A stretch of 35,868 nt of DNA, from assembly GCA_023653145.1 (NCBI GenBank), contig JAMNXM010000003.1, positions 1 through 35,868 on the forward strand. Direction: 5' to 3'. The number at the start of each line of letters is the position of its first letter. Positions within the stretch are counted from its first letter, which is position 1. Below, piece after piece: positions 15,834 through 35,868 of this stretch. Made by a program: the position numbers and the translations under genes. The notes beneath the pieces were generated by a model. That model was not told the DNA's origin, did no database searches, and worked only from the letters and a program-made list of their open reading frames with translations. Origin of the DNA: Minisyncoccota bacterium (GTDB lineage Bacteria; Patescibacteriota; Minisyncoccia; Phycocordibacterales; Phycocordibacteraceae).

Positions 15834-15862
15834 AAAAAACAAAATCCCGACAGGGTCGGGAT
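15834..15862 (-). terminator. Terminator after the tmRNA locus
   Basis: ATCCCGAC-CCT-GTCGGGAT followed by TTTGTTTTTT on the minus strand. Confidence 0.75.
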
Positions 15863-15866
15863 GTAT

Positions 15867-16070
15867 TGGTGGAGGTGGAGGGTATTGCCCGCGACTCGTG
15901 GGCTCACCTTCGTTCGCCCACGGTCTGGGCACCGCCTCGCGACTCGTCGATACGACGAGTAACGCTCCGGCGCTCATTACCCTCACGCATGCAAAGTAGT
16001 TTGCATGCTCACCCTACAAATAAAAAGACTGCCTTACGGCAGTTTTTATTTGTGGAGGTGGAGGGTAATG
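15867..16070 (-). mobile_element. T-loop-inserted structured element plus duplicated tmRNA 3' end (copy at 15867-15887 carries CCA)
   Basis: Repeat of the T-arm/acceptor strand, internal antisense copy (15972-15984), and core motifs CGGAGC, GAGGCGGTGCC and terminal TCGCGGG shared with two tRNA-linked copies. Confidence 0.7.
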
Positions 16071-16435
16071 AGCCCTCGTCCAAAGAAGGTCTTGTGAGCA
16101 TTGCTACGCTGTCTAGTGTGTTTCGAGGTTTAAGTACTACAGTAAGAATCACACAAGATAATGCAGTACCGATCTCGTGATCTTATCTACTACGTGAGCA
16201 GGGCAGTAGACCAGCCGTATGGTTATTACACTCGTCTGACCCTATGCGGCGTCAGGGGACGAGCGCCGTCCGCTCAATGGCAGACGGGTCGGTACTTACG
16301 CAACTGCGAATGCAGGAGTGAAGTACGGACTTGCAACAGGTTTCACACTGTTGGTGCTCGAGATTTTAGGTGTTCTTGAGCAATCACCACAGCGCACACA
16401 AACAAGGAATTTCTTTGTCGAATCTGGTCACCCCC
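16053..16435 (-). ncRNA. ssrA: tmRNA
   Basis: 5' GGGGGTGA..GATTCGAC; acceptor stem with G3.U70; pk1; tag ORF 16346-16296 (A)VKPVASPYFTPAFAVA* (resume codon inferred); directly downstream of smpB. Confidence 0.93.
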
Positions 16436-16514
16436 GTAGGGGACACATGCAGGAGCATGCAGCCCCAACGCGAATGACCAGGTACCCTGAGCGCGCCAGA
16501 GGCGTGCCGAAGGG

Positions 16515-16964
16515 TTATTGATTTTTCAAAGAGCGATCGATGTCCCGCTTGGCATCTCGGTCCTTCAGTGTAGCCCGTTTGTCATGCTTTTTCTTCTTCC
16601 GTGCCAGAGCAAACGAGAGCTTGATGAACCTCTTTTTATTATACACCATTATAGGCACTAATGTCAAGTCTCCCTGGGATTCTGCCCCCTCGAGCGCCTT
16701 CAACTCCTTTTTGCCGAGCAATAGTTTCCGCGTGCGCTCGGGGTCGTACGACTTTGGCGTGTTTCCAACTTGGTAGGGAGTGATAGATGCACCGACGAGG
16801 TATGCCTCGCCAGCGCGCACAACGACGCGCGCCCCGATGAGGGTCGCCATGCCTGCGCGCAGTGCTTTTGCCTCAAACCCGAAAAGCGAAATACCCGCCT
16901 CGTATGTCTCAAGAAACTCGTATTCGAGGTGTGCTTTTTTATTTTCGACGTGTGTTCGTTCCAT
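16515..16964 (-). CDS. smpB: SsrA-binding protein SmpB
   Basis: ENKKAHLEYEFLETYEAGI.L.G.E.KALR, YDPERTRKLLL, KKKHDKRATLK.RD. Confidence 0.96.
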   Translation of the reverse strand: MERTHVENKKAHLEYEFLETYEAGISLFGFEAKALRAGMATLIGARVVVRAGEAYLVGASITPYQVGNTPKSYDPERTRKLLLGKKELKALEGAESQGDLTLVPIMVYNKKRFIKLSFALARKKKKHDKRATLKDRDAKRDIDRSLKNQ

Positions 16965-17802
16965 GCGATTTTCCAAACAGTGTCTGGAGCTCCTGACTGT
17001 TTGTTACATCAGCGTACCCCAGATTAAAGGCCTCGGTAATAGCCTCGGGTGTGCCAGCAATAGTACCGACACGGAGTGGTCGTGAGGGGCTCAAGCAGTA
17101 GGCGCGCGCCGACACACCAGTGGGGCAGAGTCCTGGTGGAAGTGCCAAGTCTTTGAGCATGGCAAGCCTGAGCCCTCGTGGCGAGCGGAGCGCTTCGGCA
17201 GTTAAGAACATCTTTGACAGCGTGTCTCGACGCACCGACTCGCAGTTGATGGTTATGAGTGCCGTCACTCCGGTGCTCGCAATTTTTGATGCAAGCGTCT
17301 GTATATTTGCAGACATGCCGCCGTCTATGTAGCGCTTGAGGCCGAGACGCACCTTTTTCCCATACACGACGGGCAACGCTTTGGCGGCGCGGAGTGTCTC
17401 GTAGTAGTCGAAGAACGATGTGTTTGAAATAAACTCAGTAGCACCTGTGTCGGCGTTCGTGACGGTGATGTAGTACTGTGTTTGCGCGGCGCTTAGCTTT
17501 TTAGTGTTGAGCGGTACCTGCTTCTTGCAGATCTCGTCAATCAAGTAGTCGATGTTGACCCGACCTCTACGCGATACAAACTTTTCGTCATTGAGGTGGT
17601 GCAACCAAATAGTGCGTAGTTCCTCATACTGCTCGGCGAGGTAGTAAAACGCGTTACCTGCAGAGCCAGACTCGGCACCGAGCGCATAGGGTCGCGTCAA
17701 CCCGTATACCTCTTTGAGTGCGCTGAGGGCTCCCGCAGAGTAGGCACAGCGCTTACCGCCACCGGTTAAGACCAGACCAATTTTTTCATCGGACTTCGTC
17801 AT
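16939..17802 (-). CDS. Patatin-like phospholipase family protein
   Basis: GLVLTGGGKR oxyanion motif, S-G-S-A-G nucleophile region, YIDGG. Confidence 0.8.
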   Translation of the reverse strand: MTKSDEKIGLVLTGGGKRCAYSAGALSALKEVYGLTRPYALGAESGSAGNAFYYLAEQYEELRTIWLHHLNDEKFVSRRGRVNIDYLIDEICKKQVPLNTKKLSAAQTQYYITVTNADTGATEFISNTSFFDYYETLRAAKALPVVYGKKVRLGLKRYIDGGMSANIQTLASKIASTGVTALITINCESVRRDTLSKMFLTAEALRSPRGLRLAMLKDLALPPGLCPTGVSARAYCLSPSRPLRVGTIAGTPEAITEAFNLGYADVTNSQELQTLFGKSHGTNTRRK

Positions 17803-18197
17803 AGGAGTTTAAAGTTGTATCGCGAGTTGAGAAAGAATGACAAAAACCCAAAGAGCGTACCGACACCAATACGCGCAGGGTAGAGCCCTACCTGTGCATA
17901 CTCCACGAGTCCTGACACGAGTAACGTAATGAGTGCTGCGTTGGTACACATAATGGCGAGGAAGAATGCGTATCCTTTGCCAATAGCACGTGTCGAGTCG
18001 TGGTACACAAAGAGGCGCAGAAGTGTGTAGTGCGTTGACGTCGCAATAATAAACGCGCCCGGGACCGCAATGTAGTAGGGGAGAGCAAGGAACGTCGCCG
18101 CACCGTAGAGGAGTAGGAGGTCAAACGCAAATGCGCTGATGCCAAACACCGAGTATTGCAGGAACTTGATGCGGTGACGGTAGGTGTAGGCGAGCAT
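17799..18197 (-). CDS. GtrA-family membrane protein
   Basis: KFLQYSVFG....DL..L, LLRLFVY, FFLNSRYNF; 4 TM. Confidence 0.8.
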   Translation of the reverse strand: MLAYTYRHRIKFLQYSVFGISAFAFDLLLLYGAATFLALPYYIAVPGAFIIATSTHYTLLRLFVYHDSTRAIGKGYAFFLAIMCTNAALITLLVSGLVEYAQVGLYPARIGVGTLFGFLSFFLNSRYNFKLL

Positions 18198-18252
18198 GGT
18201 AGGTAGACTGTATCTTATTTCGTGATTATCCGCACACCATATATACTATCGT

Positions 18253-20217
18253 ATGTATGGCGACCAACGCTCGCCCCAAAAAACTACTCGAATGAAAAAA
18301 CAAGACGATCCAAAGCAAAAGAAAGGCTGGATGCAAAACGGCATGCCACAGATGCCGCGCGACCAGTGGAGTTCTTTGACGACCACACTCGCCTTAGTGG
18401 TGCTTATTGCGCTTGCCTACTCATACTTCTGGAAGGACGACAAAGCGCCCGAGACGTTGTCCCTCTCAGCCCTTGTTACTGACATCCGCGAGGGTGAGGT
18501 ACAGCGCATCGACATAGCGGGCGACGAACTCACTGTCGTATACGCAGACGAGGTAACTAAGAATGGGAAGAAAGAGCCGGGCGCAGCGCTGACTGAGACG
18601 CTCTCAAGTTACGGCCTCACCGGACCAGAACTCGAGAAGGTGCAAATAGAGGTTAAAAACCAGTCCGGGTTCCGATATTGGTTCTTCTCGCTCGCGCCAC
18701 TCATTTTGCCGCTCATCCTTATCGTTGTGTTTATCTGGTTCTTGTCGAAGCAGATGCGCGCCGGTGGTGTGCAAGCCTTTACCTTTGGGCAGTCCAAGGC
18801 ACGTATGATAGACCCCAAGGACACTGCAACTCGTGTGACGTTCTCTGACGTTGCGGGCGCCAAAGAGGCAAAAGAAGAGTTGACTGAAATTGTCGACTTT
18901 TTGAAGAACCCAAAGAAATTCTTAGACATTGGTGCACGTATTCCTAAAGGCGTACTCCTCATGGGAGCACCAGGCACCGGGAAGACCTTGCTCGGGCGCG
19001 CGGTTGCGGGTGAGGCAGGTGTGCCGTTTTTCTCGATCTCGGGGTCCGAGTTCGTCGAGATGTTTGTCGGCGTTGGTGCAAGCCGCGTGCGCGACCTGTT
19101 TGATATGGCAAAGCGCGCCGCACCTGCAATAATCTTTGTCGACGAAATAGACGCCGTAGGACGTGTGCGCGGTACTGGTGTGGGCGGAGGGAACGACGAG
19201 CGAGAGCAAACACTCAACCAGATCCTCGTCGAGATGGATGGCTTTGAGCCGAACGAAAAGGTGATCGTTATGGCAGCGACTAACCGCCCGGACGTGTTGG
19301 ACCCAGCACTCCTGCGCCCTGGCCGCTTTGATCGCCGCGTGACTATCGACCTTCCTGACCGCGATGACCGCGAGCAGATACTCAAGGTTCATGCACGCAA
19401 GAAGCCTTTGGCCGAAGACGTGGTCTTGCGCGTTATTGCAGAGCGCACCCCTGGCTTTTCTGGTGCAGAACTCTACTCATTGATGAACGAAGCAGCCATA
19501 CTTGCTGCGCGTGAGAATCGCAAGAAGGTTGGACAGTTTGACCTTATCCGTTCGATAGAAAAAGTGATGCTCGGTCCGGAGCGCAAGTCTCATGTGTTGA
19601 ACAAGAAAGAGAAAGAAATCACTGCGTACCACGAAGCAGGGCACGCCTTGGTGTCGTCGATCCTTCCGTTTGCTGACCCAGTACACAAGATTTCGATCAT
19701 CAGCCGAGGCCGCGCCGCAGGGTACACGCTCAAGTTGCCGTTTGAGGACAGCAAAATGCAGTCAAAGAACGAGTTCCTCGACGACATTGCCGTGTCGCTC
19801 GGCGGCTACGTTGCAGAGAAGGAAGTGTTCGGTGACCTCACGACCGGTCCATCGAACGACTTGCAGGTGTTGACCGCGCTCGCGCGCGACATGGTGACGC
19901 GCTTTGGTATGTCTGACGTCATGGGCCCTATGGCGCTTGAGGGCGAGGGTGGACGCACACTCTTTGGTCGCGGCGTGTCTGACAAAGAGTATTCTGAAAC
20001 CGTCTCCGCGCAGATAGATGCAGAGGTGAAGCGCATCATCGATGAGGCATACACCAAGGCGCATCGCATTATTACCGATAAGCGCTCAGTCCTTGATGCT
20101 ATTGCACAGAAACTGATTGAAGTAGAGACTATTGAACGCGAGGACTTTGAGAAGGTCTTGATCGCAAACGGCGTTACCCCTAAGGCTAAGAAAGATATCG
20201 AACACGCAGTGGTATAG
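18253..20217 (+). CDS. ftsH: ATP-dependent zinc metalloprotease FtsH (start may be 18292)
   Basis: Two TMs, [37 protein letters not shown]. Confidence 0.97.
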
Positions 20218-20286
20218 GGGGCGGGCAACCATCTATGCGAGCCGTTCGGCACGATGTATAGTTGAACAGTCGAACGTTCGACGTCC

Positions 20287-20360
20287 GCGCCTGTAGCTCA
20301 GTTGGTTAGAGCACGGAGCTTATACCTCCGCGGTCCTTGGTTCGAGTCCAAGCAGGCGCA
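20287..20360 (+). tRNA. tRNA-Ile(UAU)
   Basis: Cloverleaf GCGCCTG/CAGGCGC, anticodon arm CGGAG-CT TAT AC-CTCCG, T-loop TTCGAGT, A73; CCA not encoded. Confidence 0.9.
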
Positions 20361-20541
20361 CACAGTACACACACATCCCGCCTGCGCGGGATTTTGTGAC
20401 TGTGTGCGAGCCGGAGCCATGTTTTACGTCTCGTAAAACCGCGAGGCGGGGCCTGCGTGCACACGTGAACGTAGGTGAGCGTGTGACATGTGGGCCACTA
20501 GAACTAATCCCGAATCGCGGGCGAGTCCAACCAGGCGCACA
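20343..20541 (+). mobile_element. T-loop-inserted structured element plus duplicated tRNA-Ile 3' end (20522-20541)
   Basis: CGAGTCCAA(G/C)CAGGCGCACA repeat; core CCGGAGC, GAGGCGGGGCC, GAACGTAGGTGAGC and terminal TCGCGGG. Confidence 0.7.
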
Positions 20542-20547
20542 CTTTTA

Positions 20548-21126
20548 CTACGTAACCGTTGGCAACTCGCGCGGAATGTCGAGGTACACCTCACCACGGC
20601 GCAGTGTCTTGCGCTCCACCACCTCGCGCCCCTCGGCGTCCGTGTAGGTGACTTCAACCACGTCTTCACTTACACGTTCTTTGGCATCCGCTAGGTCTGT
20701 GCCAGTTGCAGTGCGCTCGGTCTGTATCTCAGTTGCGAGTGCTCGCAGTTCTTCTTCTCGACCCCAGAGGAGTGCTTGCGCATTCGCAACCGCTACGTCT
20801 GGGCTGTAGCCTCGGGCAGCAATCTGCCATAAGTCGTGCGACGTACCGTCGCATCCCATCGCCTCAGCGGCTGCCGCCATAGTAGGGTGGAAGTCGCCAG
20901 TCAAAGTGTATCCGCCGTAGCCTGGACCCGGGACGTCGGACGCCTCTATGAGATCCATGCCTAAGAGTAGAGCAGCGAGCGCGTGGCATGCCTCGTGATA
21001 GGCCGTACTGCCTATGGCGTGCTCTACCACGGCGCCCTCGACACGCGCTACCGACACACTCATGCCCCCGACAGTACGTACCGCCTCAGCCTCATTGAGC
21101 CCTAGGTGTACCCGCTCAAAGCCCAT
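20548..21126 (-). CDS. Stand-alone HExxH metalloprotease-like protein (peptidase M41-like)
   Basis: STAYHEACHALAA, GYGGYT, G...DL motifs. Confidence 0.6.
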   Translation of the reverse strand: MGFERVHLGLNEAEAVRTVGGMSVSVARVEGAVVEHAIGSTAYHEACHALAALLLGMDLIEASDVPGPGYGGYTLTGDFHPTMAAAAEAMGCDGTSHDLWQIAARGYSPDVAVANAQALLWGREEELRALATEIQTERTATGTDLADAKERVSEDVVEVTYTDAEGREVVERKTLRRGEVYLDIPRELPTVT

Positions 21127-21175
21127 TAGAAAACTTACTGATGGAATACCACTCTGGTTCCTATATGCGGCGTTA

Positions 21176-21204
21176 TTGACAAATTATTTATAATATGCTA
21201 TTAT
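21176..21204 (+). promoter_or_regulatory. Sigma70 promoter (leaderless)
   Basis: TTGACA-17 nt-TATTAT with extended TG, 6 nt before ATG 21211. Confidence 0.75.
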
Positions 21205-21210
21205 ACAAAT

Positions 21211-21474
21211 ATGATTACAGCAGACAAAATATTAAATGTGTCTGAGGGTTTGTTTATTCTTTCAGCTAGTTCTATGTGTCTCGGTTTGATGGGCTGCTTC
21301 TTGCTTGATGAGATTGGTTACGATGTGATTGAGGGTGAGCTTGGGAGTCCAGAGTACTCTAATGAGCGTCTCGCTCTTATTGGCACAATGAGTCTCGCAG
21401 GTCTTATCGGTATGGTAGTTGGTGGCAAAATGCTTGCTGCTAACGTGTTCAACAGCAACCAAACTGCCCACTAG
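21211..21474 (+). CDS. Hypothetical 2-TM protein
   Basis: 87 aa with two hydrophobic segments and its own promoter. Confidence 0.6.
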   Translation: MITADKILNVSEGLFILSASSMCLGLMGCFLLDEIGYDVIEGELGSPEYSNERLALIGTMSLAGLIGMVVGGKMLAANVFNSNQTAH

Positions 21475-21485
21475 TTTAATTACTG

Positions 21486-23621
21486 TTACTCAAAATGCAG
21501 GTCCTTCAATTTCAGAAGGGCCTGTTTTTTTAGTCCGGGATGCGCAGTGAGCCCTGGGTCTTTCTGCGCTAGGGCAAACGCTTCGCTGCGCGCCGCTTCA
21601 ACAAGTTTGACGTTCGCGAGCGCCTCCATGCCAATGTCTGAAAGTCCCGACTGCTGCCTGCCGTACAACTCGCCTGCGCCGCGGATCGCGAGGTCTGCCT
21701 CGGCAAGTTCGAACCCATTTTTTGCTTTGAGTATTGCCTTGAGGCGTGCGTTGTCTTGAGACGCAGCCTTGTCTACCATCAAGAAGCAGTACGGCTGGTG
21801 TGACGAGCGCATTACGCGGCCGCGCAACTGATGGAGTTGCGCCAACCCAAAGCGCTCTGCACCCTCGATCAAAATACTCGTTGCGTTCGGGACATTAACG
21901 CCCACCTCAACAACACTGGTTGCAACGAGTATGTGTGTTTCGTTCTGCTCAAAGCGTCGCATGGTTGCCTCTTTCTCTGCAGGTGACATCTTGCTGTGGA
22001 GTTTGTCTATGACCAGGCTAGGGAAGACCTTTTGGAGATTTTTAATTTCGGTCGCCACCGAGCGTGTTTGGAGTGCGAGTTGCTTGGTTGGGTCAGGCTC
22101 GTCGATACGTGGACAGATAACGTACGCTTGGCGCCCTTCAGCAATGAGGCGACGGATAGTGTCGTACGCGCGTACTCGCTCTTTGGGCCCCGCAATTTCA
22201 GTCTTTATTTCTTTGCGTCCTGCTGGCAACTCGTCGAGTACGGTCAGGTCGAGGTCACCGTAGAGCGTAAGTGCAAGTGTGCGCGGTATGGGCGTTGCAG
22301 TCATCGACAAGAGATGCGGCGTCGTCCCGTCTTTGAGCGTGAGTGCCTGACGTTGGAAGGTTCCGAACCGATGTTGCTCGTCAATGATCACGTACGCGAG
22401 GTGCTTAAACTGCACTGCCTTTTGTATCAGCGCATGTGTGCCGATGAGTATTGGCACTTCGCCGTTTGCAACCCACTTCAAGAGTTGAGTGCGCGATATG
22501 TCGGTAGCGCCGTCTGGATTCACTTTGGACGGGTACTTGTAGCACCCACTTGAGGTGATGAGTCCGACCTGCACGGGGTAGTTCTTAAAGTATGACGTAA
22601 ATGTCGCAAAGTGCTGCTTGGCAAGTATCTCAGTTGGGCACATGTAGGCAACTTGGAGATTGCCAAAGGTTTTGCCTGGTATGGGCCGCGAGGTAACGAC
22701 AGCGTACGCGGTCGCTGCAGCGACCGCGGTCTTGCCGCTCCCGACGTCGCCCTCTAAGAGACGTGCCATCGGGTACGGCTCCAGAAAGTTTGCCAAGATA
22801 TCCGCAATCGCTTTTTTCTGCCCGGCCGTTGGGGTAAAGGGGAAGGTCGAGACAAAGTCGGCAACGCGCCGCTCGTCAGCGTCGACAGGGAGCGCGTGTC
22901 GCGTCTTGTTGGTCTCACGCTCCAGGGCGCGTGCCAGTTGTATCAAAAATACTTCTTCAAACGCAAAGCGCTTGCGCGCCGCAGACGCATCCTTCTCACT
23001 CTTTGGTTGGTGTGCCCAGATCCATGCAGTTTTGATGTCCGGGAGGTGGTAGCGCTCGCGTATAGACTCGGGTAGTGGGTCATCAACGTTTTGTATGAGC
23101 GTCGGGTGCGCCTCAACAATGCGTTTGACTGCATGATAAAACCACAACGACGTGATGCCAGCGGACTCGGGGTAGACGGGCATGAGCCCAACGGAACTGT
23201 CGAGTATCGGGAGTCCTGCCGCCTTTTCAACCACTGGGTTTGCAATGTACTTCTTACCACTTCCTATCGAGAGTGTGCCGTGGAGGCGCACCAACTCGTT
23301 CAGGGGTACCATCTTGGCAAGATACGGCTGATGAAACCACATCACGCGCACGGACCCGGTGCCGTCATCAAACACACCTTCCGCCATAGGGACCTTGGTC
23401 TTCCACGAGCGCTTCATCTCGAGTTTCGTAAACTGGCCGTACAGGACCACGTCGCCCTTGGTATGGAGTTGCGCTACTTGCCGAACATCAGCGCCCGACT
23501 CGTAGCGGTGGGGGACGTGATAGAGGAGGTCGCGGATGGTCCTGAGTTTCAGCCGCTCGAGCGCTGCGCGCTGTACCTGGGTGAGGCGCACTAATTCGGC
23601 AATAGGTGAGTCGAGTTCCAC
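21486..23621 (-). CDS. recG: ATP-dependent DNA helicase RecG
   Basis: RLLEGDVGSGKT, IIDEQHRFG, MTATPIPRTL, AERFGLAQLHQLRGRV, GFELAEADL.IRG.GE. Confidence 0.97.
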   Translation of the reverse strand: MELDSPIAELVRLTQVQRAALERLKLRTIRDLLYHVPHRYESGADVRQVAQLHTKGDVVLYGQFTKLEMKRSWKTKVPMAEGVFDDGTGSVRVMWFHQPYLAKMVPLNELVRLHGTLSIGSGKKYIANPVVEKAAGLPILDSSVGLMPVYPESAGITSLWFYHAVKRIVEAHPTLIQNVDDPLPESIRERYHLPDIKTAWIWAHQPKSEKDASAARKRFAFEEVFLIQLARALERETNKTRHALPVDADERRVADFVSTFPFTPTAGQKKAIADILANFLEPYPMARLLEGDVGSGKTAVAAATAYAVVTSRPIPGKTFGNLQVAYMCPTEILAKQHFATFTSYFKNYPVQVGLITSSGCYKYPSKVNPDGATDISRTQLLKWVANGEVPILIGTHALIQKAVQFKHLAYVIIDEQHRFGTFQRQALTLKDGTTPHLLSMTATPIPRTLALTLYGDLDLTVLDELPAGRKEIKTEIAGPKERVRAYDTIRRLIAEGRQAYVICPRIDEPDPTKQLALQTRSVATEIKNLQKVFPSLVIDKLHSKMSPAEKEATMRRFEQNETHILVATSVVEVGVNVPNATSILIEGAERFGLAQLHQLRGRVMRSSHQPYCFLMVDKAASQDNARLKAILKAKNGFELAEADLAIRGAGELYGRQQSGLSDIGMEALANVKLVEAARSEAFALAQKDPGLTAHPGLKKQALLKLKDLHFE

Positions 23622-23679
23622 CCGATCAGTATAGCCGAGGCACCTGGCGCGCTCTACCGTAACCGCGTAGAATGAAGGT

Positions 23680-24387
23680 ATGGTAGCGAGTCCAGAATCT
23701 GGTCAGGAGCAGCCCAAAAGAGAAACTGAAATAGAGGTTCGTACTGTGTGTGCTGATAAAGCACAGTATGAGTCGATCATTACTACAGTAAAAAAAACGT
23801 CTGAGGTCATCAGACCCACATGCACCATTGTTGACGAGCGGTATGAGATTCCGGCATTACCTGACACGACGGTACGTATTCGTGGGTACTGCACTAACGG
23901 TGTCTGTAAGTACGAGTGGACGATAAAAACTAAAAATAAAGGTATTGTTGCAGATGATGCAGCGCCCGCAAAGGTGCGGAGTGAAGATGTGTCTGAGCAG
24001 TTTGATACTAAGGAGCAGGCGCTCCAAGCACTCAGTGCTCGGATTAAAGAACTCACACAGCAAGAACTGTCTGCCGAAGAGATTCTTGCGAAGAAAAGTT
24101 TTTCATGTACCCGCGAACGCACCGTGTATCGCGTGAACAACGAGGAGTGCGGCGGCTTGGTAGTATCTGCTGACGTTTTTACCAGCTGGGACGGTGTTGA
24201 GTATGACCCACCGCTCTATAGTTTGGAGTTTGAGGTCACTGTCCCAGAAGATGCAACCGATGAGCAAATCGCGAAAGCACGACAACGCGTCAACGAGTGT
24301 GCGGAGAAGTTAGGTGCTGAGGGCGTCACCGATAAGTCAGTGGTTAAAATCTTACGTTCAGAAACAGCGCGCCGAACGGGTGCGTGA
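23680..24387 (+). CDS. CYTH (triphosphate tunnel) domain protein
   Basis: EIEVR (ExExK-like), VRIR, WTIK, R.RTVYR, LEFEV. Confidence 0.65.
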   Translation: MVASPESGQEQPKRETEIEVRTVCADKAQYESIITTVKKTSEVIRPTCTIVDERYEIPALPDTTVRIRGYCTNGVCKYEWTIKTKNKGIVADDAAPAKVRSEDVSEQFDTKEQALQALSARIKELTQQELSAEEILAKKSFSCTRERTVYRVNNEECGGLVVSADVFTSWDGVEYDPPLYSLEFEVTVPEDATDEQIAKARQRVNECAEKLGAEGVTDKSVVKILRSETARRTGA

Positions 24388-24419
24388 TACGATAATTCTA
24401 TAGCACTAATAAAAAAATT

Positions 24420-24782
24420 ATGACCACAGCCGACGTCGCTCAAAAAGTTGTTGAGTACAACCGCGCTAATAAGATCAAAGAAGTATATGCAGAGTTCTAC
24501 TCACCTGACGTGGTGAGTGTCGAGGCGATGCCAGGACCTTTGCAAGAGGTGCGAGGCATGGACGGCATCCAAAAGAAAATGGAGTGGTGGGAGGCAAATA
24601 ACGAGATTCATGGCGTCGAGGTGTCTGAGCCACTCGTGTCAGACAGTCACTTTGCTGTTGTGTACACGATGGATGTCACCAACAAGGAGATGAATATGCG
24701 AACTAAAAGTGCGGAACTTGCAGTGTACGAAGTAAAGGACGGCAAGGTCGTCCGCGAGCAGTTCTTCTACTCGATGGGGTAG
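24420..24782 (+). CDS. SnoaL-like/NTF2 family protein
   Basis: FYSPDVVSVE, SEPLVSDSHFAV, ELAVYEVKDGKVVREQFFY. Confidence 0.85.
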   Translation: MTTADVAQKVVEYNRANKIKEVYAEFYSPDVVSVEAMPGPLQEVRGMDGIQKKMEWWEANNEIHGVEVSEPLVSDSHFAVVYTMDVTNKEMNMRTKSAELAVYEVKDGKVVREQFFYSMG

Positions 24783-24800
24783 GGTACGATATTCAAAACT

Positions 24801-24826
24801 AAAAAACCGGGTTCTGCCGGTTTTTT
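24801..24826. terminator. Bidirectional terminator
   Basis: AAAAAACCGG-GTTCTG-CCGGTTTTTT between the convergent SnoaL gene and tRNA. Confidence 0.8.
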
Positions 24827-24834
24827 GTTTGCTG

Positions 24835-24919
24835 CGGAGGGAGCGAGATTCGAACTCGCGGGCCGGTGAAGGCCGGCGGTTTAGTAAACCGCTGATTTAA
24901 ACCACTCATCCATCCCTCC
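24835..24919 (-). tRNA. tRNA-Ser(ACU)
   Basis: GGAGGGA/TCCCTCC, G73, long variable arm, anticodon arm GCGGT-TT ACT AA-ACCGC, T-loop TTCGAAT. Confidence 0.88.
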
Positions 24920-24981
24920 TCTATACGGGAGTGTACCGTATTTCATAGGTATTTACAGTATGTGCTATGGTTACTGCGTTA

Positions 24982-25066
24982 GGAGACGTGTCAGAGTGGT
25001 CGAATGTGCCCCCTTGCTAAGGGGGTAGGGCGCAAGCCCTCGTGGGTTCGAATCCCACCGTCTCCG
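24982..25066 (+). tRNA. tRNA-Ser(GCU)
   Basis: GGAGACG/CGTCTCC, G73, anticodon arm CCCCC-TT GCT AA-GGGGG, long variable arm. Confidence 0.93.
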
Positions 25067-25332
25067 CTACGACAAAAAAGAATAGCGACCAGCTATTCTT
25101 TTTTTGTTGTCGTGCGTGTAGGGATGGGATTCGAACGACGGAGCGAGCGCAGGCGAGTGAGTCGGTGCCCAGAGCAGTGTCAGCAGGCACTGACTCGCGG
25201 GCGAATCCCACCGTCTCCGCTGCAAAAAATAAGCCAGCATGTGCTGGTTTTATTTTTTGCCACGGTGGGATGAGAAGGGCGCGAGTGCGCGCAGCATCCA
25301 GGCTCCGAGTCGGAGCGAGGAGGAATCCCACC
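25049..25332 (+). mobile_element. Two tandem T-loop-inserted elements with duplicated tRNA-Ser 3' ends (25202-25221, 25323-25332)
   Basis: 20-nt exact repeat CGAATCCCACCGTCTCCGCT; antisense copies at 25125-25136 and 25262-25271; unit 1 ends TCGCGGG. Confidence 0.7.
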
Positions 25333-25389
25333 ACCTTTGTAATCAACGCGTCGTAGGTACGGCTTCCTAAAGTAACATACACTGTATAT

Positions 25390-29785: not shown

Positions 29786-30154
29786 ATGGCGTACGTAGAC
29801 GGATTTATATTGCTCGTGCCAAAGAAGAACAGAAAGGAGTATAAAAAGATGGCAGAGGAAGGGAAGCGTACGTGGTTGAAGCACGGCGCCATAGACTACC
29901 AAGAGTGCCGTATGGACGACGACACCAGGGCCAAGTACGGAACACTGAGTTTTGCCAAGATGGTAAAGGCTAAGGCAGGGGAGGAGGTGTGGCTTTCGTA
30001 CATCGTGTACAAGTCAAAGGGTGACCGCGCTCGCATCAACAAGCTCGTGATGAAGGAGATGGAGACTATGTACAGCGAGAAAGATATGAAGAACATGCCC
30101 TTCAAGATGAATCGGATGTCCGTCGCTGGCTTTGCCGTCGAGGTGGGAAAGTAA
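29786..30154 (+). CDS. DUF1428 (YbaA-like) protein
   Basis: MAYVDGF...VPKK, W..HGA..Y.EC, MPF.M.RM...GF. Confidence 0.85.
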   Translation: MAYVDGFILLVPKKNRKEYKKMAEEGKRTWLKHGAIDYQECRMDDDTRAKYGTLSFAKMVKAKAGEEVWLSYIVYKSKGDRARINKLVMKEMETMYSEKDMKNMPFKMNRMSVAGFAVEVGK

Positions 30155-30155
30155 C

Positions 30156-30854
30156 ATGAAAGGCAAGGTCGTCGTTATCACGGGTTCTAGTACAGGTTTA
30201 GGCAAGGCGCTGGCACTCGCGTTTGTACAGCGTGGTGCTGTGGTAGTTGTGAATGGCCGCGATAAAGAAACACTTGAGAGAGTGGCTGCTGAGGTGGGCG
30301 CAACCGCGTTTGTTGCTGATATCACCAAGGCTGACGACGTTGCCGCACTCGCTGATTTTGCAGTTACACAATTCGGGCACATAGATATCTGGGTCAACAA
30401 CGCAGGCGTGTGGATGGCGCACGCCCCAGCGACAGAACTAAACATTGAGCGTGTACGCGCGATGTTTGATACAAACGTCTTCGGCCTCATGCTTGGCTGT
30501 AAGGTTGCACTGACGCAGATGCGCACACAGGGGTTTGGCACCATACTCAATATCTGTTCAACCTCGGGCCTTGTTGGTCGCCCTACGTCGTCGGCGTACT
30601 CGTCGTCCAAGTGGGCAGTGCGCGGCTTTAGCGACTCTATCCGTGGAGAGTGCGAGGGGACCAATATAAAGGTAGTCACTGCCTACCCGGGCGGCATCAA
30701 GACGAATCTCTTTGATGAAGAGCGACCCCCAGAATACGCTGACTTTATGACCCCAGAGTCTGTGGCTGAGAAGATAGTCCGTAACTTAGAACTTGAAAGT
30801 CCCGAGACAGAGCAAATCATAAAGCGCCCCGCCCAGCCCGACGGACCAAAATAG
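30156..30854 (+). CDS. Short-chain dehydrogenase/reductase
   Basis: TGSSTGLG, VNNAG, YSSSK. Confidence 0.92.
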   Translation: MKGKVVVITGSSTGLGKALALAFVQRGAVVVVNGRDKETLERVAAEVGATAFVADITKADDVAALADFAVTQFGHIDIWVNNAGVWMAHAPATELNIERVRAMFDTNVFGLMLGCKVALTQMRTQGFGTILNICSTSGLVGRPTSSAYSSSKWAVRGFSDSIRGECEGTNIKVVTAYPGGIKTNLFDEERPPEYADFMTPESVAEKIVRNLELESPETEQIIKRPAQPDGPK

Positions 30855-30956
30855 ATGGTCACCCACGAGGAGGTCTACGCCCGCCGTGCGAAGCGCCTTA
30901 TCGTCATCGATGATGGTCGTATCAAGAGCGAAGAGAAGCTCCACCATAAGCACTAG
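30855..30956 (+). repeat. Duplicated 3' end (34 codons) of the ABC ATPase gene (copy of 29637-29738)
   Basis: 94/102 nt identical; all 8 differences are synonymous. Confidence 0.95.
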
Positions 30957-31002
30957 TACACAATTGCTATAGCTAAGACATCGAGGGCGCCGGATAGGAG
31001 AG
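30953..31002 (-). repeat. Degenerate copy of the comF 3' end
   Basis: Encodes LLSGALDVLAIAIVY*, versus comF LLSSGALDVLAIAIAH*. Confidence 0.85.
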
Positions 31003-31140
31003 TGTGCGTCCCTAGGTTGATACTTGAATGCTGTCGCGGGCTTTGCAGTTGACATGGTAAAGAGGTCTCCGTAAGAAGAACTGTAAACTAGCGCCATTTC
31101 GCCGAAGCCGGGACCTGTCTGATGAAATTAGTTACAACTT

Positions 31141-32979
31141 CTATTTTCTTTGCTTACTTAGCGCCTCCTCAGCATAAGAAAAGATTTTTTCAAATTGGTC
31201 TTTTGTAGCTTTTGTAATCAATACCGATTCTTTCTTAAAAGACAAAATGCTAAGGGAATGATTAAGAGCACTCTTAAGCGCTGGTGCATCCTTTCTCGCC
31301 TGTACATGTGCATTCGTTCCTAAGGCAGCATCTATAATTCGATCAACTTCAGCTTCATTGAAGACGCCCTCCGTTTCAAAAGGTTTCTGTAGTACATCCT
31401 GAAGAGTAAAAATTCTCTCCTTAATGAAATCTCCGAATTCCTCAATGTAGGCACTTTTTGCCTTTTCACCACCCTCATCGCCATCAAGCATTACCACAAA
31501 CGGGGCACCCCAAGATAAGTAAATGCGAATAATTTCCCACAACTGGTCTTTTCCTGCCCCTGGATAGAATCGGAAATCATATTTCTTACGAAGACCAATA
31601 ACATTATTTATGTATTCAAATGTAAACCAATCATTTTTACCCTCCGTGATAACAATGTTTGGTACTGGTTCAACAGCACTTGGTGCGTACTCGAGTAAAT
31701 CTAGAATAGGTTGGCAGTAGGACATTTTTGTAACTCCGTAACCCTCTCCAACAAAGGTGAAATATCTAAGTGCATTTATTCTTGCACTATCTTCAAATGT
31801 CATATCGCCCTCCAAGTTTTTCTCCGACTGGTTCTCATTCATAACTACGTATGTGCCTGGCAACCACTCCATACGGATTAAATGGTGACTGTGAGTTGAG
31901 TAGGCGACCATTGACTTGTCACTCAGGTCTGCAATAGCATCCAATATTTTGGTCTGCGCTTTTGAATGCAGGTTTGACGCAGGCTCGTCAAGCAAAAATA
32001 GAATATTCCTAGATCGATTCTTTCTAAACTCTGTGAATAATAGAAATGAAAAGAACCATTTGCATCCCTTACTACGCTCATTAATTGAAAACTGCTGATT
32101 AGCATCAGTAATAACCCGGAATGATACCTCAAGGTACGCTCCCTTTTGCTCAGGAATAAGTCGAATCTCTTTGAAGTTTAATTTTTTACCACCGTCTATA
32201 AACAGATCTTTCCATGCATCAGTAATTGTTTCATTTAACTTCCCCTCCATTTTTAAAACTCTCCCTGCTGCAGTATCGTGATCAGGTGTCCACAAATCTG
32301 CAACCCATTCCTGGAAGGAAGTTGATTTCGGTTGCACTGAAACGAGAATGTCATCCAACACAGACTGCCAAGATTTATTGAGTTCAGTATCTACTTCGAC
32401 CTGACGGTCATTTGGCGTTGATGTGTTGGTATAAAAAAGTACTTTTTCTGGAATATCAAAAATAAAGTCTTCATAAAAAAGGATTTCTGGCAGTAAATTC
32501 TCACGAATATGCTTGATTAACTCAACCCATGAATTTTTGTCGGTAGAAGAAAGGCTTTTAGTTTTTCCTTTCACACGAGAACTGAAGGACACAGTTTTAG
32601 TAGTATCAACGTACTGATGGTCTTTGAAGTTAAAGTTAATGGTATAGGTGAACTCCTCACCAATTTCGAGTGTAGTCTTTTTTCCGATCTCCTTCCATTT
32701 TTTCAGAATGGAATTCTTGTCAGTCTCGTCTAATAGAGCTGATGCCGTCAATTCCACACTTCCAGTGAAGTCTGTACCTTTAGGTCTAAGCATTTTATAC
32801 TCGTCAGCATTCGGTGTCTGGCCTCGAGCTACGCGGTAAAAAAGCTCTAGCGACTTCAAAATTGTAGTTTTACCGCTTTCATTTAAGCCGACGAGGGTCA
32901 GGATACGGTTTTTCTGCAAGTCTAAGTCAACTTTCTCAATGCCCCTATAGTTTTCAAGATGGAAGCTCTTGTATTGCAT
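31141..32979 (-). CDS. ABC-type ATPase + TOPRIM nuclease (OLD-like), candidate defence protein
   Basis: LENYRGI, GLNESGKTT, RSKG.KWF signature, LLDEPASNLH, STHSHH; TOPRIM ITEGKND and LDGD; AT-rich. Confidence 0.8.
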   Translation of the reverse strand: MQYKSFHLENYRGIEKVDLDLQKNRILTLVGLNESGKTTILKSLELFYRVARGQTPNADEYKMLRPKGTDFTGSVELTASALLDETDKNSILKKWKEIGKKTTLEIGEEFTYTINFNFKDHQYVDTTKTVSFSSRVKGKTKSLSSTDKNSWVELIKHIRENLLPEILFYEDFIFDIPEKVLFYTNTSTPNDRQVEVDTELNKSWQSVLDDILVSVQPKSTSFQEWVADLWTPDHDTAAGRVLKMEGKLNETITDAWKDLFIDGGKKLNFKEIRLIPEQKGAYLEVSFRVITDANQQFSINERSKGCKWFFSFLLFTEFRKNRSRNILFLLDEPASNLHSKAQTKILDAIADLSDKSMVAYSTHSHHLIRMEWLPGTYVVMNENQSEKNLEGDMTFEDSARINALRYFTFVGEGYGVTKMSYCQPILDLLEYAPSAVEPVPNIVITEGKNDWFTFEYINNVIGLRKKYDFRFYPGAGKDQLWEIIRIYLSWGAPFVVMLDGDEGGEKAKSAYIEEFGDFIKERIFTLQDVLQKPFETEGVFNEAEVDRIIDAALGTNAHVQARKDAPALKSALNHSLSILSFKKESVLITKATKDQFEKIFSYAEEALSKQRK

Positions 32980-33157
32980 GTAGATTATTTATTCTTTTTT
33001 CATTATACGCCGCCCTTCCTCAAAAGCCACAGGAGACTAAAAGGTCAAGTTTCGTTAGCAGAAAACAACATATATCCTACTAGAAGGAAATAACGTATAT
33101 GTAGACAGTCAACGTCCCATAATTTGCAAATCAGGCAATGAAGAGTACTCTGATTTT

Positions 33158-33475
33158 GTGAATACGGAAGATGAGGAGTTTGAGAAAGATGTGAAGGGAC
33201 TGTGGGATCAGTGGTTATTTGTTGTGGTTGCGACTTGTTTAGCCGTATTTATTGGTATAGCTGTAAATGCAGCTTATGAAATTTTAAGAGATTGTTTCTC
33301 AGCTTGGTATATACTTGTCCTCGGCATTATTTTTAGTTTGATATTAATAGACCTCTTTACCTATCTTCTAACAACTCTTTACCACACGCGTGAGCATCCT
33401 GAGGAGACATATTCAGGATTTCTAAAGAGGTATTGGAAGATGCGAGTTAGAAGCCTGCAGTTCTGGAGAAAATAG
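33158..33475 (+). CDS. Hypothetical 2-TM protein
   Basis: 105 aa, two hydrophobic helices, GTG start 6 nt after TACTCT. Confidence 0.6.
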   Translation: MNTEDEEFEKDVKGLWDQWLFVVVATCLAVFIGIAVNAAYEILRDCFSAWYILVLGIIFSLILIDLFTYLLTTLYHTREHPEETYSGFLKRYWKMRVRSLQFWRK

Positions 33476-33486
33476 GAGTTGCTTGT

Positions 33487-33551
33487 TTAATGCGCTATTG
33501 CTATAGCGAGGACGTCGAGGGCGCCGGAGGAGAGGAGCGCACGGCGGGCGT
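33487..33551 (-). repeat. Duplicated comF 3' end (copy of 34678-34742)
   Basis: Encodes ARRALLSSGALDVLAIAIAH*, identical in protein with synonymous nucleotide changes. Confidence 0.93.
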
Positions 33552-33642
33552 GGGGGCAAGATGTACACGACTAACTATTCTCTTATTCACGCGAATAGGA
33601 GAATAGTGCGGTTTAGGAATACATAAAGGTGGTTGCCTCCTA

Positions 33643-33677
33643 GATAGGTTCCTCACTCGCTCCACAGGTTCACAACG
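33643..33677. repeat. Cassette-boundary repeat, degenerate copy 1
   Basis: GATAGGTTCCTCACTCGCTCCACAGGTTCACAACG aligns to 34220-34257. Confidence 0.6.
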
Positions 33678-33697
33678 AGTTTTGGTATAGTGTTGAT

Positions 33698-34225
33698 ATG
33701 AAGATAATCGACCTGACATTGCCATTGTATTCTGGCATGCCAGTTTTCCCTGGTGATCCTGAAGTGTCTATTGAGCTCGTAGCAACACTAGAGAAGGACG
33801 GGTGGAATATGCGCCGCATGCAAGTAAACACGCACGATGCAACGCACATGAATGTTCCGATTCATATGGTTGCGGGAGGTAAAAATTTAGATGACTACTC
33901 GCTCGAAACATTCTGTGGTCCAGCAAAAATCTACATGCCTGATGCTCCGATGGAGCCCTCATTTGGATACATATTTAGAGACAGAAACATTGATACGGCA
34001 ATCGCAGAAGAAATAAAGAAAGTAAAACCCAGATTTGTTGGCATCTCAAGCGAATACGAATGGGATATAGAGATTGAGAAAGATCTCTTGGTTACTGGGA
34101 TCATCCAGTATGAGCATCTTGCAAATACTGCCGAGTTGCCCGAGAATTTCTTCTTTTATGGTATGCCTCTAAAGATCAAGGAAGGGGACGGAAGTCCAGT
34201 CAGAGCATTTGCTGTGGTTGATTAA
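33698..34225 (+). CDS. Cyclase / kynurenine formamidase family protein
   Basis: IIDLT.PL..GMPVFPGDP, THDATHMNVPIH, PLKIKEGDGSPVRA. Confidence 0.88.
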   Translation: MKIIDLTLPLYSGMPVFPGDPEVSIELVATLEKDGWNMRRMQVNTHDATHMNVPIHMVAGGKNLDDYSLETFCGPAKIYMPDAPMEPSFGYIFRDRNIDTAIAEEIKKVKPRFVGISSEYEWDIEIEKDLLVTGIIQYEHLANTAELPENFFFYGMPLKIKEGDGSPVRAFAVVD

Positions 34226-34257
34226 GGTTCCAACATCGTCCCATAGGGTCCACAACG
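34220..34257. repeat. Cassette-boundary repeat copy 2
   Basis: GATTAAGGTTCCAACATCGTCCCATAGGGTCCACAACG; 27/31 identical to 34643-34673. Confidence 0.8.
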
Positions 34258-34282
34258 GTATTTCTCAGTTATACTCTAGGCT

Positions 34283-34648
34283 ATGAAGATCTATATTTCT
34301 CATCCGAATAGTATTGATTTTAAAACTATTTTGTACGAGCCCTTGAAAGCATCAGAACTTTCACAAAAGCATGAATTCTTTCTGCCTCATGACGAGGGTC
34401 GTGATGAGAACACAAAGGAAGTGATCCGTACGAGCGGATTACTTATTGCAGAAGTTTCTGAACCATCAACAGGTTCTGGAATTGAAATGGGATGGGCAAG
34501 TGCTTTTGAGGTACCAGTATGGTGCGTCTATCAGAAGGACATGAAGCCTTCAGGGTCTGCAAAATATATTGCTTCAAAAATGTTTGCCTATACCGACAGC
34601 AAAGACCTTACTTCGATTCTGAATAAAGAGTTAGAAACTGTAGATTAG
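34283..34648 (+). CDS. Nucleoside 2-deoxyribosyltransferase-like protein
   Basis: MKIYISH, FFLPH, LIAEVSEPSTGSGIEMGWA. Confidence 0.75.
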   Translation: MKIYISHPNSIDFKTILYEPLKASELSQKHEFFLPHDEGRDENTKEVIRTSGLLIAEVSEPSTGSGIEMGWASAFEVPVWCVYQKDMKPSGSAKYIASKMFAYTDSKDLTSILNKELETVD

Positions 34649-34673
34649 GATTCCAACCTCGTCCCATAAGGTC
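34643..34673. repeat. Cassette-boundary repeat copy 3
   Basis: GATTAGGATTCCAACCTCGTCCCATAAGGTC, ending 4 nt from the comF stop. Confidence 0.8.
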
Positions 34674-34677
34674 GGGA

Positions 34678-35322
34678 CTAGTGCGCAATCGCAATAGCGA
34701 GGACGTCGAGGGCGCCGGAGGAGAGGAGAGCCCGGCGGGCGTCGGAGAGGGTGGCACCGGATTCGGTGACGTCGTCTATGAGGATGACGAAGCGGCCGCG
34801 CGCACGCGAGTGCGCGCGGAATGCGCCTTGCATGTTCGCTTTTCTTTGCGATCGTGCAATGTGTACTTGTGATGTGCGGTCCTCGCGCGTAAGGAGTGTG
34901 TCGTCGTACGTTACGTCGGGCATGCGATCTGCGATAGCGCGGGCGAAGAGTGCTGCCTGGTTATACCCACGCTCGCGGAGTCGCGCGGCCGAGGAGGGGA
35001 TAGGCGCGAGGACCACGTTCTCCCAACCAGAGAGGGCGCGCGCTTCTGCCACGAGTTCTGTGAGGTAGTCCGCAGCGAAGGGCGCGACTTTATCTCCGAC
35101 CGAGCGCTCGCCGTAATACTTCACTGCCTGCACGAGGGAGCGGACACGCTCATCGTGATAGGGGAGCAGTGCATGGATCCACGGATGGCCCGGGAGCACC
35201 GTCGGTGTGGCAAGGTCTGCAATGTCCTCGTCAGAAAGTATCCGTGCTCGGGTTGCACGCGGATGGCGCGGCAAAAGTGTGTCAAAGACTGCGACGACAC
35301 ATAAAGTCAACGCACGCCACAT
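34678..35322 (-). CDS. comF: ComF family phosphoribosyltransferase-like competence protein
   Basis: VKY.G, PIP....RLRERGYNQA, R..N..GAF, ILIDDV.ESGATL. Confidence 0.9.
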   Translation of the reverse strand: MWRALTLCVVAVFDTLLPRHPRATRARILSDEDIADLATPTVLPGHPWIHALLPYHDERVRSLVQAVKYYGERSVGDKVAPFAADYLTELVAEARALSGWENVVLAPIPSSAARLRERGYNQAALFARAIADRMPDVTYDDTLLTREDRTSQVHIARSQRKANMQGAFRAHSRARGRFVILIDDVTESGATLSDARRALLSSGALDVLAIAIAH

Positions 35323-35344
35323 GCTATACTCTCCCCATAGTACT

Positions 35345-35868
35345 ATGGAGTTTTCATTGGGAAAGGTCGGTGAGTACCTGTCTCGGTTCAGCGGCGCGCT
35401 TGGTCAAAAGGAAAGCGAGTCAGTGGTGGGCGTTGACATAGGGACCTCAAGCATCAAACTCGTACAACTGCGCGAGCGGCACGGCTCTGCGATTTTGGAA
35501 ACCTACGGCGAGATAGCACTCGGCCCCTACGCGCAGGCGCAAGTTGGGCAGTCGACCTCGCCGCCAGCAGAAAAGATACAAGAGGCCTGCACCGACCTTA
35601 TCCGTGAGGCAAACGTGACCGCTCGCACCGGCGGTTTTTCAGTACCGCTCTCATCCTCACTCATCACACTCCTTACGCTCCCTACTAAAAACGCTGACGA
35701 CTTAAAGTCGATGGTGCCTATTGAGGCGCGCAAGTACATCCCGGTCCCCGTGTCCGAGGTGGCGCTCGACTGGTTCGTGATCCCTGAGGAAGAGGTCAAG
35801 TTTCTTGGCGCACCCAAGGACACACGTCCACAAAATGCGACCGACATTTTAATGGTCGCAATTCACAA
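35345..35868 (+). CDS. pilM: Type IV pilus assembly protein PilM (3'-truncated by the window edge; not in the ORF track)
   Basis: VVGVDIGTSSIKLVQL..ILETYGEIAL, EARKYIPVPVSEVALDW; open to the window end. Confidence 0.9.
   Translation, partial: MEFSLGKVGEYLSRFSGALGQKESESVVGVDIGTSSIKLVQLRERHGSAILETYGEIALGPYAQAQVGQSTSPPAEKIQEACTDLIREANVTARTGGFSVPLSSSLITLLTLPTKNADDLKSMVPIEARKYIPVPVSEVALDWFVIPEEEVKFLGAPKDTRPQNATDILMVAIH

Follow-up and report, generated by a model that had tools for sequence, protein, structure and literature searches.

The tRNA genes and the transfer-messenger RNA (tmRNA) gene of a Minisyncoccota bacterium from the order Phycocordibacterales are followed, in about one case out of three, by short structured units that belong to a large, previously uncatalogued family of non-coding repeats found in this one order of ultra-small bacteria. 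The window studied here, a stretch of 35,868 nucleotides (nt) of GenBank contig JAMNXM010000003.1 (assembly GCA_023653145.1), contains such units behind its genes for tmRNA, tRNA-Ile(UAU) and tRNA-Ser(GCU) (Table 1). It is contig C16 of a 633-kb metagenome-assembled genome (48 contigs, 90.7% complete), the source genome, which has 36 tRNA or tmRNA genes, together written t(m)RNA. All three inserts open with C56 of the T-loop and close with TCGCGGG, and behind each the 3' half of its host gene appears a second time. The upstream gene copy is complete and normal at all three loci, according to ARAGORN and Rfam. The limits and lengths of the inserts had been proposed in an original prediction, made from the sequence alone, and were confirmed by hand reading; the coordinates of the sub-parts were likewise read by hand, from sequence rulers.

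The strict motif of the core, CGGAGC-hairpin-GAGKCGGKGCC, occurs at five sites in the 633 kb of the source genome, each time immediately behind a t(m)RNA gene of the same orientation. We built a covariance model, R1, from an alignment of 28 units (A3) and counted its hits at E<0.01. It gave 13 matches in the source genome, every one of them immediately downstream of a t(m)RNA gene that has the same orientation, as the original prediction had expected of such a model. Their hosts are tmRNA, Cys, Ser-GCU, Gly-GCC, Lys-UUU, Val-GAC, Glu-CUC, Arg-CCG, Ala-UGC (twice), Glu-UUC, Ile-UAU and Met, so that 12 of the 36 genes are occupied; a 14th match (E 0.15) has no tRNA nearby. The predicted non-coding family, tied to t(m)RNA genes and carrying a target-specific antisense segment, is thus upheld.

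Across the order, whose genomes used here are metagenome-assembled like the source genome, R1 is positive in 109 of 150 genomes, with a maximum of 19 matches per genome. The strict motif is present in 44 of 401 genomes, against two matches for a reversed-pattern control. An upstream same-strand tRNA was called by ARAGORN at 25 of the 34 strict-motif sites in other genomes, and these hosts comprise Met, Arg, Ile, Lys, Trp, Pro, Gln, Leu, Ser and Ala; the remaining nine sites are second units of arrays, contig edges, hosts uncalled by ARAGORN and one chance match in a coding sequence (L148). Outside the order, the strict motif occurs in three of about 295 genomes of the phylum, and one alone resembles a unit. 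A scan of the whole DNA collection with a loose pattern returned at least 120 stretches, mostly chance matches in GC-rich genomes; among the matches listed, L019 and L081 are true units. Literature searches by exact-word matching found no such family described for Saccharibacteria or Patescibacteria. With no Rfam family of its own, it is among the most abundant conserved non-coding RNA folds of these tiny genomes.

Read in the tRNA sense, all parts follow one order: the 3' half from nt 56 (S1), a trailer, an antisense segment that we call the guide, a first core arm (P1), a linker, a second arm (P2) and the second 3'-half copy (S2). The trailer is often an intrinsic-terminator hairpin. The T-arm guide is antisense to the 3' strand of the T-stem, to the T-loop and to G53; a small hairpin, hp0, precedes it, and ahead of hp0 many units have a stretch antisense to the 3' strand of the acceptor. 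In arm P1, a 4-bp helix is followed by a bulged G, by tandem G-A pairs and by a variable hairpin, hp1. A GUG linker joins it to P2, where CCY pairs with the terminal RGG and a GAC/GUC helix and the hairpin hp2 make up the rest. The hairpin-loop motif said to be common to the tmRNA and Ile copies is present. An exact start of the second copy at C56, also part of the original prediction, holds for the three loci of the window and does not hold for the family, where this start ranges from nt 56 to 59; the junction is therefore not always exactly 55/56.

At the same place in the T-loop, a second unit family was seen at five loci of other genomes of the order (L121, L125, L126, L128 and L141). Its guide layout is identical, and its core differs, being composed of a long hairpin, then a GUACUG motif, then a short hairpin. 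The subfamilies distinguished are thus GGUGCC, GGGGYC, this GUACUG family and the short, RtT-like type of unit E2 described below.

The alignment A3 supports the fold of the core. Paired cells amount to 90%, versus 35-45% in slid-partner controls; both-sided changes are found in 19 of the 26 pairs, and the observed score was reached by none of 500 shuffles. The predicted covariation between CGCC/GGCG and CGAC/GUCG was recovered in the RNAalifold alignment, with C-G in 23 and A-U in 5 of its 28 rows, and the predicted tandem GA:AG pairs are borne out by the fold. Since the core contains both G-U pairs (8 of 28 rows at one pair) and tandem G-A pairs, the fold lies on the tRNA-sense strand. Folded as single sequences, the tmRNA and Ser units adopt the same three-way junction, closed by the guide:S2 helix (z of -5.8 and -2.6, respectively). 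In the minimum-free-energy folds of the tmRNA unit, of the Ser unit (E1) and of a shorter, older unit behind the latter (E2), the antisense segment pairs with the 3'-end copy. In several units the gap between tRNA and unit is only 12-28 nt long and holds no terminator, which makes co-transcription of tRNA and unit likely at those loci.

The guide spans the 55/56 boundary. In the source genome, the best fit among the 36 t(m)RNAs is the unit's own host for 7 of the 12 units, and the longest runs with the own host measure 16 nt for Met, 13 each for tmRNA, Glu-CUC and Lys, 12 for Ser and 10 for Ile. The Lys run is tied with two other tRNAs, and the Val guide ranks its own tRNA second. The run of the tmRNA unit confirms that the antisense segment matches even the odd loop of this RNA: the guide ending GAAC becomes GAGC opposite C54 of tmRNA, just as it becomes GCAC opposite G55 of tRNA-Met (contig C27). 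This tmRNA T-loop is atypical in having C at nt 54, and the gene was missed by ARAGORN and found by Rfam only.

Among 21 units from other genomes, 19 have a guide for which the functional gene offers a longer complementary run than S2; the excess is larger than 3 nt, the part for which nt 53-55 account, in 13 of those 19. The guide fits the functional gene better because in S2 the conserved end of the unit has usually taken the place of the T-loop part, the T-stem and acceptor parts being left intact. In some units the guide is instead directed at the tRNA 3' end and the trailer. The Ile copy is one of them: its antisense segment, at first taken to be truncated, is a 10-nt complement of this kind that ranks its own tRNA first of 36. 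Some of the locus comparisons were made by eye on printed sequence.

This layout had also raised the idea of a minimal intron-like RNA spliced from the T-loop. The boundary after U55, the G at the end of the unit and a guide laid out like an internal guide sequence across both 'exons' all recall group I introns. The reading fails nonetheless, and we consider it extremely unlikely, as the upstream copy is complete, is scored as a normal t(m)RNA and often has a terminator of its own behind it, while the downstream copy is in other genomes often altered or interrupted in its T-loop part. Moreover, U55 faces A in the guide and not G, the core is only about 95 nt long, and no Rfam intron family was found.

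The presence of the units varies between close relatives. Data on related strains came from Logan contigs of sequencing runs, which are DNA only, and parts of the window that no contig covered were disregarded, as were contig joints between different tRNA genes (for example 20314 to 25040), taken to be cross-matches. In two freshwater runs (X2 and X3), about 92-93% identical to the window, position 25048 is joined to 25202, so that exactly the 153 nt of the Ser unit are skipped; 22 nt at this joint can be assigned to either side. In a third run, at least 25049-25179 of the unit is present. A congeneric genome, G077, is devoid of both the Ser unit E1 and the Ile unit, and the empty sites that had been expected in sister strains are thereby found. 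Its tRNA-Ser(GCU) gene is directly followed by a homolog of the window's second terminator and then by a degenerate E2-like unit; as only these two are kept there, E1 sits between the tRNA-Ser gene and an older unit. Behind tRNA-Ile of G077 the next gene comes directly, and the open reading frame (ORF) at 20548-21126 is missing along with the unit. The tmRNA gene of G077 keeps only the first part of its unit, followed by 4.5 kb of other DNA. This DNA, at about 2023-6585 of L181 (G077:C5), has no counterpart in the window. In three related strains (runs X2-X4), tRNA-Ile is inverted between unchanged flanking genes at window positions 20217-20561, and the unit region is unaligned.

Whole units also form tandem arrays, at L123, L136, L156 and L158. 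Many other loci finish with a partial second unit, consisting of the 3' half plus trailer, hp0 or guide and never extending far into the core (for instance L153-L156, L159 and L160); we tentatively attribute these to template switching at conserved motifs. In two cases the guide seems to be borrowed. The Val(UAC) and Leu(GAG) units of genome G173 have a common trailer, and their guides, nearly identical to each other, match Leu over no more than 10 nt; both 3'-half copies are local at each locus. In the source genome, the guide of the Cys unit fits Val(CAC) better than its own tRNA (12 versus 10 nt), and G077 has a unit of such a kind at Val(CAC). Guide and core therefore appear copied and the 3' half duplicated from the target in these cases, which, at the level of sequence, suggests that guide and core travel and that the 3' half is provided by the target.

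The family is built like RtT RNA, known since the early sequencing of tyrT. The tyrT/tyrV locus of E. coli K-12 has four RtT units, each made up of a copied tRNA-Tyr 3' end, a trailer, a segment antisense to the T-arm and hairpins with G-A pairs, and closed by a helix with the following 3'-end copy; the 4738 E. coli genomes surveyed have between 1 and 10 copies. Shared with RtT are the same-strand position directly 3' of a tRNA gene, the tandem units, the 3'-end copy combined with a segment antisense to the T-arm, the GC-rich hairpins containing tandem G-A pairs, the closing helix between antisense segment and 3'-end copy and the variable copy number. A GA-for-UC variant of the antisense T-arm segment is common to K-12 RtT, E2 and several units elsewhere. 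Contrary to RtT, the core has two arms on a three-way junction, no small tpr-like ORF is seen, and units whose guides are tRNA-specific stand behind one in three t(m)RNA genes rather than at one tRNA-Tyr locus.

By its model, however, the family is not a member of RtT (RF00391). In the window there is no gathering-level hit: the best score is 18.3 bits, on E2 (25249-25342), compared to a gathering score of 45, and even at E up to 10 nothing matches in the tmRNA unit. None of 150 genomes of the order has an RF00391 match at E<=0.01, in a search with a positive E. coli control, and scans of the tmRNA and Ser loci against Rfam at E-value level yielded only the sub-threshold RtT match plus noise. 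Conversely, R1 gives RtT at most 6.6 bits and so does not detect it. The original prediction would have been refuted, on its own terms, by a match of the core to an already described family, and this applies in part: the architecture is that of RtT, although the RF00391 model detects no unit.

The kinship in architecture raises the possibility that the units are host-serving structured RNAs of tRNA operons, evolving by vertical descent, tandem duplication and loss, with an antisense segment that would pair with the 3'-half copy or the pre-tRNA for processing or regulation and would not target DNA. The Rfam consensus of RtT closes its antisense segment with the downstream 3'-end copy, and the units fold alike; their fold covaries strongly across the whole order, and the short terminator-free gaps behind several tRNAs fit a common transcript. 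According to two reports, rttR, which is one tyrT repeat unit, is released during processing of the tyrT transcript and tied to stress responses (10.1101/2024.07.17.603846; PMC3318445). Yet occupancy is patchy, with 41 of 150 genomes lacking an R1 match and with congeneric genomes and strains differing in the genes occupied. The loop part of the guide matches the intact T-loop and not the downstream copy, and two guides, described above, look borrowed from another tRNA. On balance we find this reading unlikely, though a serious rival.

The explanation that we prefer, and to which we give roughly even credence, is a different one: the unit would be non-autonomous, its guide and core being copied to new t(m)RNA genes by nucleic-acid pairing, with duplication of the target's 3' half. 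The unit would supply the completing 3' half, a trailer or terminator, a guide to the T-loop, the T-stem and sometimes the acceptor strand, and the two-arm core, leaving the displaced 3' half behind. A t(m)RNA locus that already has a unit would serve as the source, and its guide and core would be copied to another t(m)RNA gene whose T-arm is similar, through two pairing steps, of the guide with the intact T-loop and of the homologous 3' halves for the return. Host replication or repair enzymes would act here, by template switching or target-primed copying, and the 3' half would in consequence be duplicated from the target itself. Tandem arrays could expand later, and units could be lost by recombination between the 3'-half repeats. 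The transcript would fold into the three-way junction, in which the helix of guide and 3' half would resemble the stack of T-stem and acceptor; the unit is probably cut from the tRNA transcript as a small stable RNA, by analogy with RtT.

Several points weigh against copying by pairing. Five of the 12 guides in the source genome do not rank their own tRNA first. The empty sites may once have been occupied and have lost their units by secondary deletion between the 20-22-nt repeats. The near-identical cores of G173 are mosaic, with the same hp1 joined to two types of hp2, so that gene conversion is possible instead of recent spread. Conservation of the fold throughout the order is left unexplained by passive template switching, and implies selection on the RNA or a protein partner. 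RtT, the architectural relative, is known from one E. coli locus, for which tandem duplication is a better fit than mobility. Finally, no intermediate, de novo event or expression signal was seen in the runs found, all of them DNA contigs, and a trans-acting gene could be missing, given the incompleteness of the source genome.

It is also conceivable, albeit quite improbable, that the units are self-targeting, either independently of protein or with host enzymes only. The guide would lie across the T-loop, the 3'-terminal G held by P2 would be joined at 55/56, and repair would duplicate the 3' half. If true, this would be a naturally programmable mobile RNA or single-stranded DNA that seeks tRNA genes, and it would explain RtT.

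Alternatively, a dedicated trans-acting enzyme (a recombinase, HUH nuclease, reverse transcriptase or other) would use the guide, as RNA or folded single-stranded DNA, to locate an intact T-loop and would then join the paired 3'-terminal G at 55/56; the guide would then be a bridge or guide RNA, or a folded attachment site. Consistent with this, the guide crosses the junction and changes in step with nt 54/55, helix P2 keeps the terminal GGG beside the guide, insertion is precise at least for the Ser unit of the window, the second core family occupies the same place in the T-loop, and all genomes checked for one have an Xer-like tyrosine recombinase. Candidate enzymes are nevertheless scarce. 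In the source genome, at its 90.7% completeness, there are no matches to the IS110 DEDD recombinase (PF01548) or to reverse transcriptase (PF00078, RVT_1), and the TnpB zinc ribbon (PF07282) is absent from all five genomes searched; we rejected the first two as mobilisers for the source genome and TnpB for those five. A single tyrosine recombinase (PF00589) was matched in the source genome, an Xer-like 343-aa frame on contig C17. Genomes G077, G173, G159 and G063 have one Xer-like gene each, of about 307 aa, and a second tyrosine recombinase is found in G188; an integrase beyond the single Xer-like gene is thus absent from the source genome and from four of the five others, and extra integrases were discarded as mobilisers too. 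These results agree with the predicted lack of an ORF or integrase, as no unit contains an ORF. The longer copies with a nuclease, recombinase or reverse transcriptase ORF that had been anticipated are not among the roughly 45 units read. We hold the involvement of a dedicated enzyme to be unlikely, though a serious rival reading.

A RAYT-like Y1 (HUH) gene of 218 aa lies between rpsS and rplB, on the opposite strand, in the source genome (G000:C19:4743-5381; L164 1294-1950, plus strand). Proteins of this type occur in 228 of 401 genomes, in multiple copies in many genomes of the order. By an approximate hand tally in which 21 negatives were assigned by assumption, they are present in about 69 of 109 R1-positive versus about 18 of 41 R1-negative genomes, and they are absent from G173 despite at least seven near-identical units there. 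We rejected the RAYT-like protein as a mobiliser because of this weak co-occurrence and its absence from G173.

Direct repeats of a tRNA 3' half starting in the T-loop, together with a terminator brought along, are the signature of integration into tRNA genes. The units could accordingly be scars, attL and attR sites with the interior deleted, of phages or islands once integrated at the T-loop by tyrosine integrases: as in such elements and prophages, the insert starts in the T-loop, restores the 3' end of the gene and supplies a terminator, and the former 3' end remains behind it as a direct repeat. We deem this very unlikely. At 150-180 nt the units are uniformly small, without integrase or cargo, and they have a covarying single-strand fold and an antisense copy of the target, specific to each tRNA. 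There are 13 copies in a 0.63-Mb genome, and most genomes checked, the source genome included, have only the one Xer-like gene.

Three other mobile systems share features with the units. The bridge RNA of IS110 is non-coding, about 150-200 nt long and endowed with programmable complementarity to the insertion target, with two loops that read target and donor. The units are alike in size and in their target-complementary sequence; in contrast, their guide is one interrupted antisense run to a single strand, their target is duplicated over at least 20 nt, and the source genome has no DEDD enzyme. REP and REPIN sequences with RAYT, as well as derivatives of IS200/IS605, are short, hairpin-rich, non-autonomous repeats; insertion of the IS200/IS605, PATE or REP-RAYT type occurs beside a short motif without target duplication, and TnpB is often present. 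The units resemble them in these first three properties, and a RAYT-like gene exists in the source genome, but there is no meaningful co-occurrence, the target is duplicated (repeats of at least 20-22 nt) and the linkage to t(m)RNA genes is strict. Folded single-stranded attachment sites are known in attP of phage CTX and attC of integrons. Likewise, the 3' half and its antisense copy would fold, as a single strand, into a duplex that mimics the target and leaves the crossover bases unpaired; contrary to those systems, nothing ties the Xer-like enzyme to the units and no single-stranded DNA form was observed.

The neighbours of the three RNA genes in the window are ordinary chromosomal genes (infC, smpB, ftsH, recG and others). 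Back to back with tRNA-Ser(GCU), at 24834-24919 on the minus strand, ARAGORN calls a class-II tRNA with the anticodon ACU ('Ser'). An A34 tRNA-Ser is uncommon among bacteria; a tRNA with the ACU anticodon also occurs behind the Ser(GCU) unit of another genome of the order (L146). Two ORFs, of 192 aa (20548-21126, minus strand) and 235 aa (23680-24387, plus strand), have no Pfam match. From 30000 to 35868 the G+C content falls from about 0.54 to 0.41-0.47, and this end of the window may be foreign DNA.

Table 1 Units, their parts and their host genes in the window (S1 and S2, first and second 3'-half copies; hp, hairpin).
Feature	Position	Strand	Remarks
tmRNA gene (ssrA)	16050-16435	-	unusual T-loop; Rfam RF00023, 66.9 bits; smpB adjacent
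SmpB	16515-16976		beside the tmRNA gene
tmRNA-linked unit, 183 nt	15888-16070	-	core pattern; R1 78.8 bits; fold z = -5.8
tmRNA unit, S1 (3' half)	16051-16070	-
tmRNA unit, terminator hairpin	16016-16050	-
tmRNA unit, small hairpin hp0	15987-16008	-
tmRNA unit, antisense guide	15972-15986	-	13-nt perfect complement, rank 1/36
tmRNA unit, core arm P1/hp1	15928-15969	-
tmRNA unit, arm P2/hp2	15888-15927	-	GGG at end
tmRNA S2, second 3'-half copy	15867-15887	-	ends in CCA
Original tmRNA terminator	15834-15862		after S2
tRNA-Ile(UAU) gene	20287-20361	+	ARAGORN and Rfam
tRNA-Ile-linked unit, 179 nt	20343-20521	+	composite; core pattern; R1 26 bits, E 8e-6
Ile unit, S1	20343-20362	+
Ile unit, terminator	20375-20395	+
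Ile unit, guide to tRNA 3' end plus trailer	20396-20409	+	10-nt run, rank 1/36
Ile unit, core	20412-20453	+	GGGGCC subtype
Ile unit, hp2	20454-20488	+
Ile unit, tail	up to 20521	+	ends in TCGCGGG
Ile S2, second 3'-half copy	20522-20541	+	one T-stem mismatch
tRNA-Ser(GCU) gene	24982-25067	+	ARAGORN and Rfam
tRNA-Ser-linked unit E1, 153 nt	25049-25201	+	R1 69.1 bits; folds as three-way junction
Ser unit E1, S1	25049-25068	+
Ser unit E1, terminator	25070-25112	+
Ser unit E1, guide	25121-25136	+
Ser unit E1, core P1/hp1	25139-25169	+
Ser unit E1, P2/hp2	25170-25201	+	GGG at end
Ser S2, second 3'-half copy	25202-25221	+	20/20 identical to S1
Terminator after Ser S2	25222-25260	+
E2, shorter, older unit behind tRNA-Ser	25262-25335	+	fold z = -4.1; sub-threshold RtT match
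E2, guide	25262-25277	+	with GAUGAGAA
E2, small core	25278-25322	+
E2, third partial 3'-half copy	25323-25335	+

Altogether, a structured element that had escaped annotation sits on about a third of the t(m)RNA genes of this bacterium and on tRNA genes in most genomes of a large order of the Candidate Phyla Radiation. The units would shift the ends of tRNA transcripts; they break assemblies at tRNA loci and can mislead the annotation of tRNA and tmRNA genes. With their many tRNA-specific guides, they make it testable whether units of the RtT type recognise the T-arm through base pairing. Should guide-directed copying prove true, non-coding DNA would have a novel means of spreading and of selecting its target.

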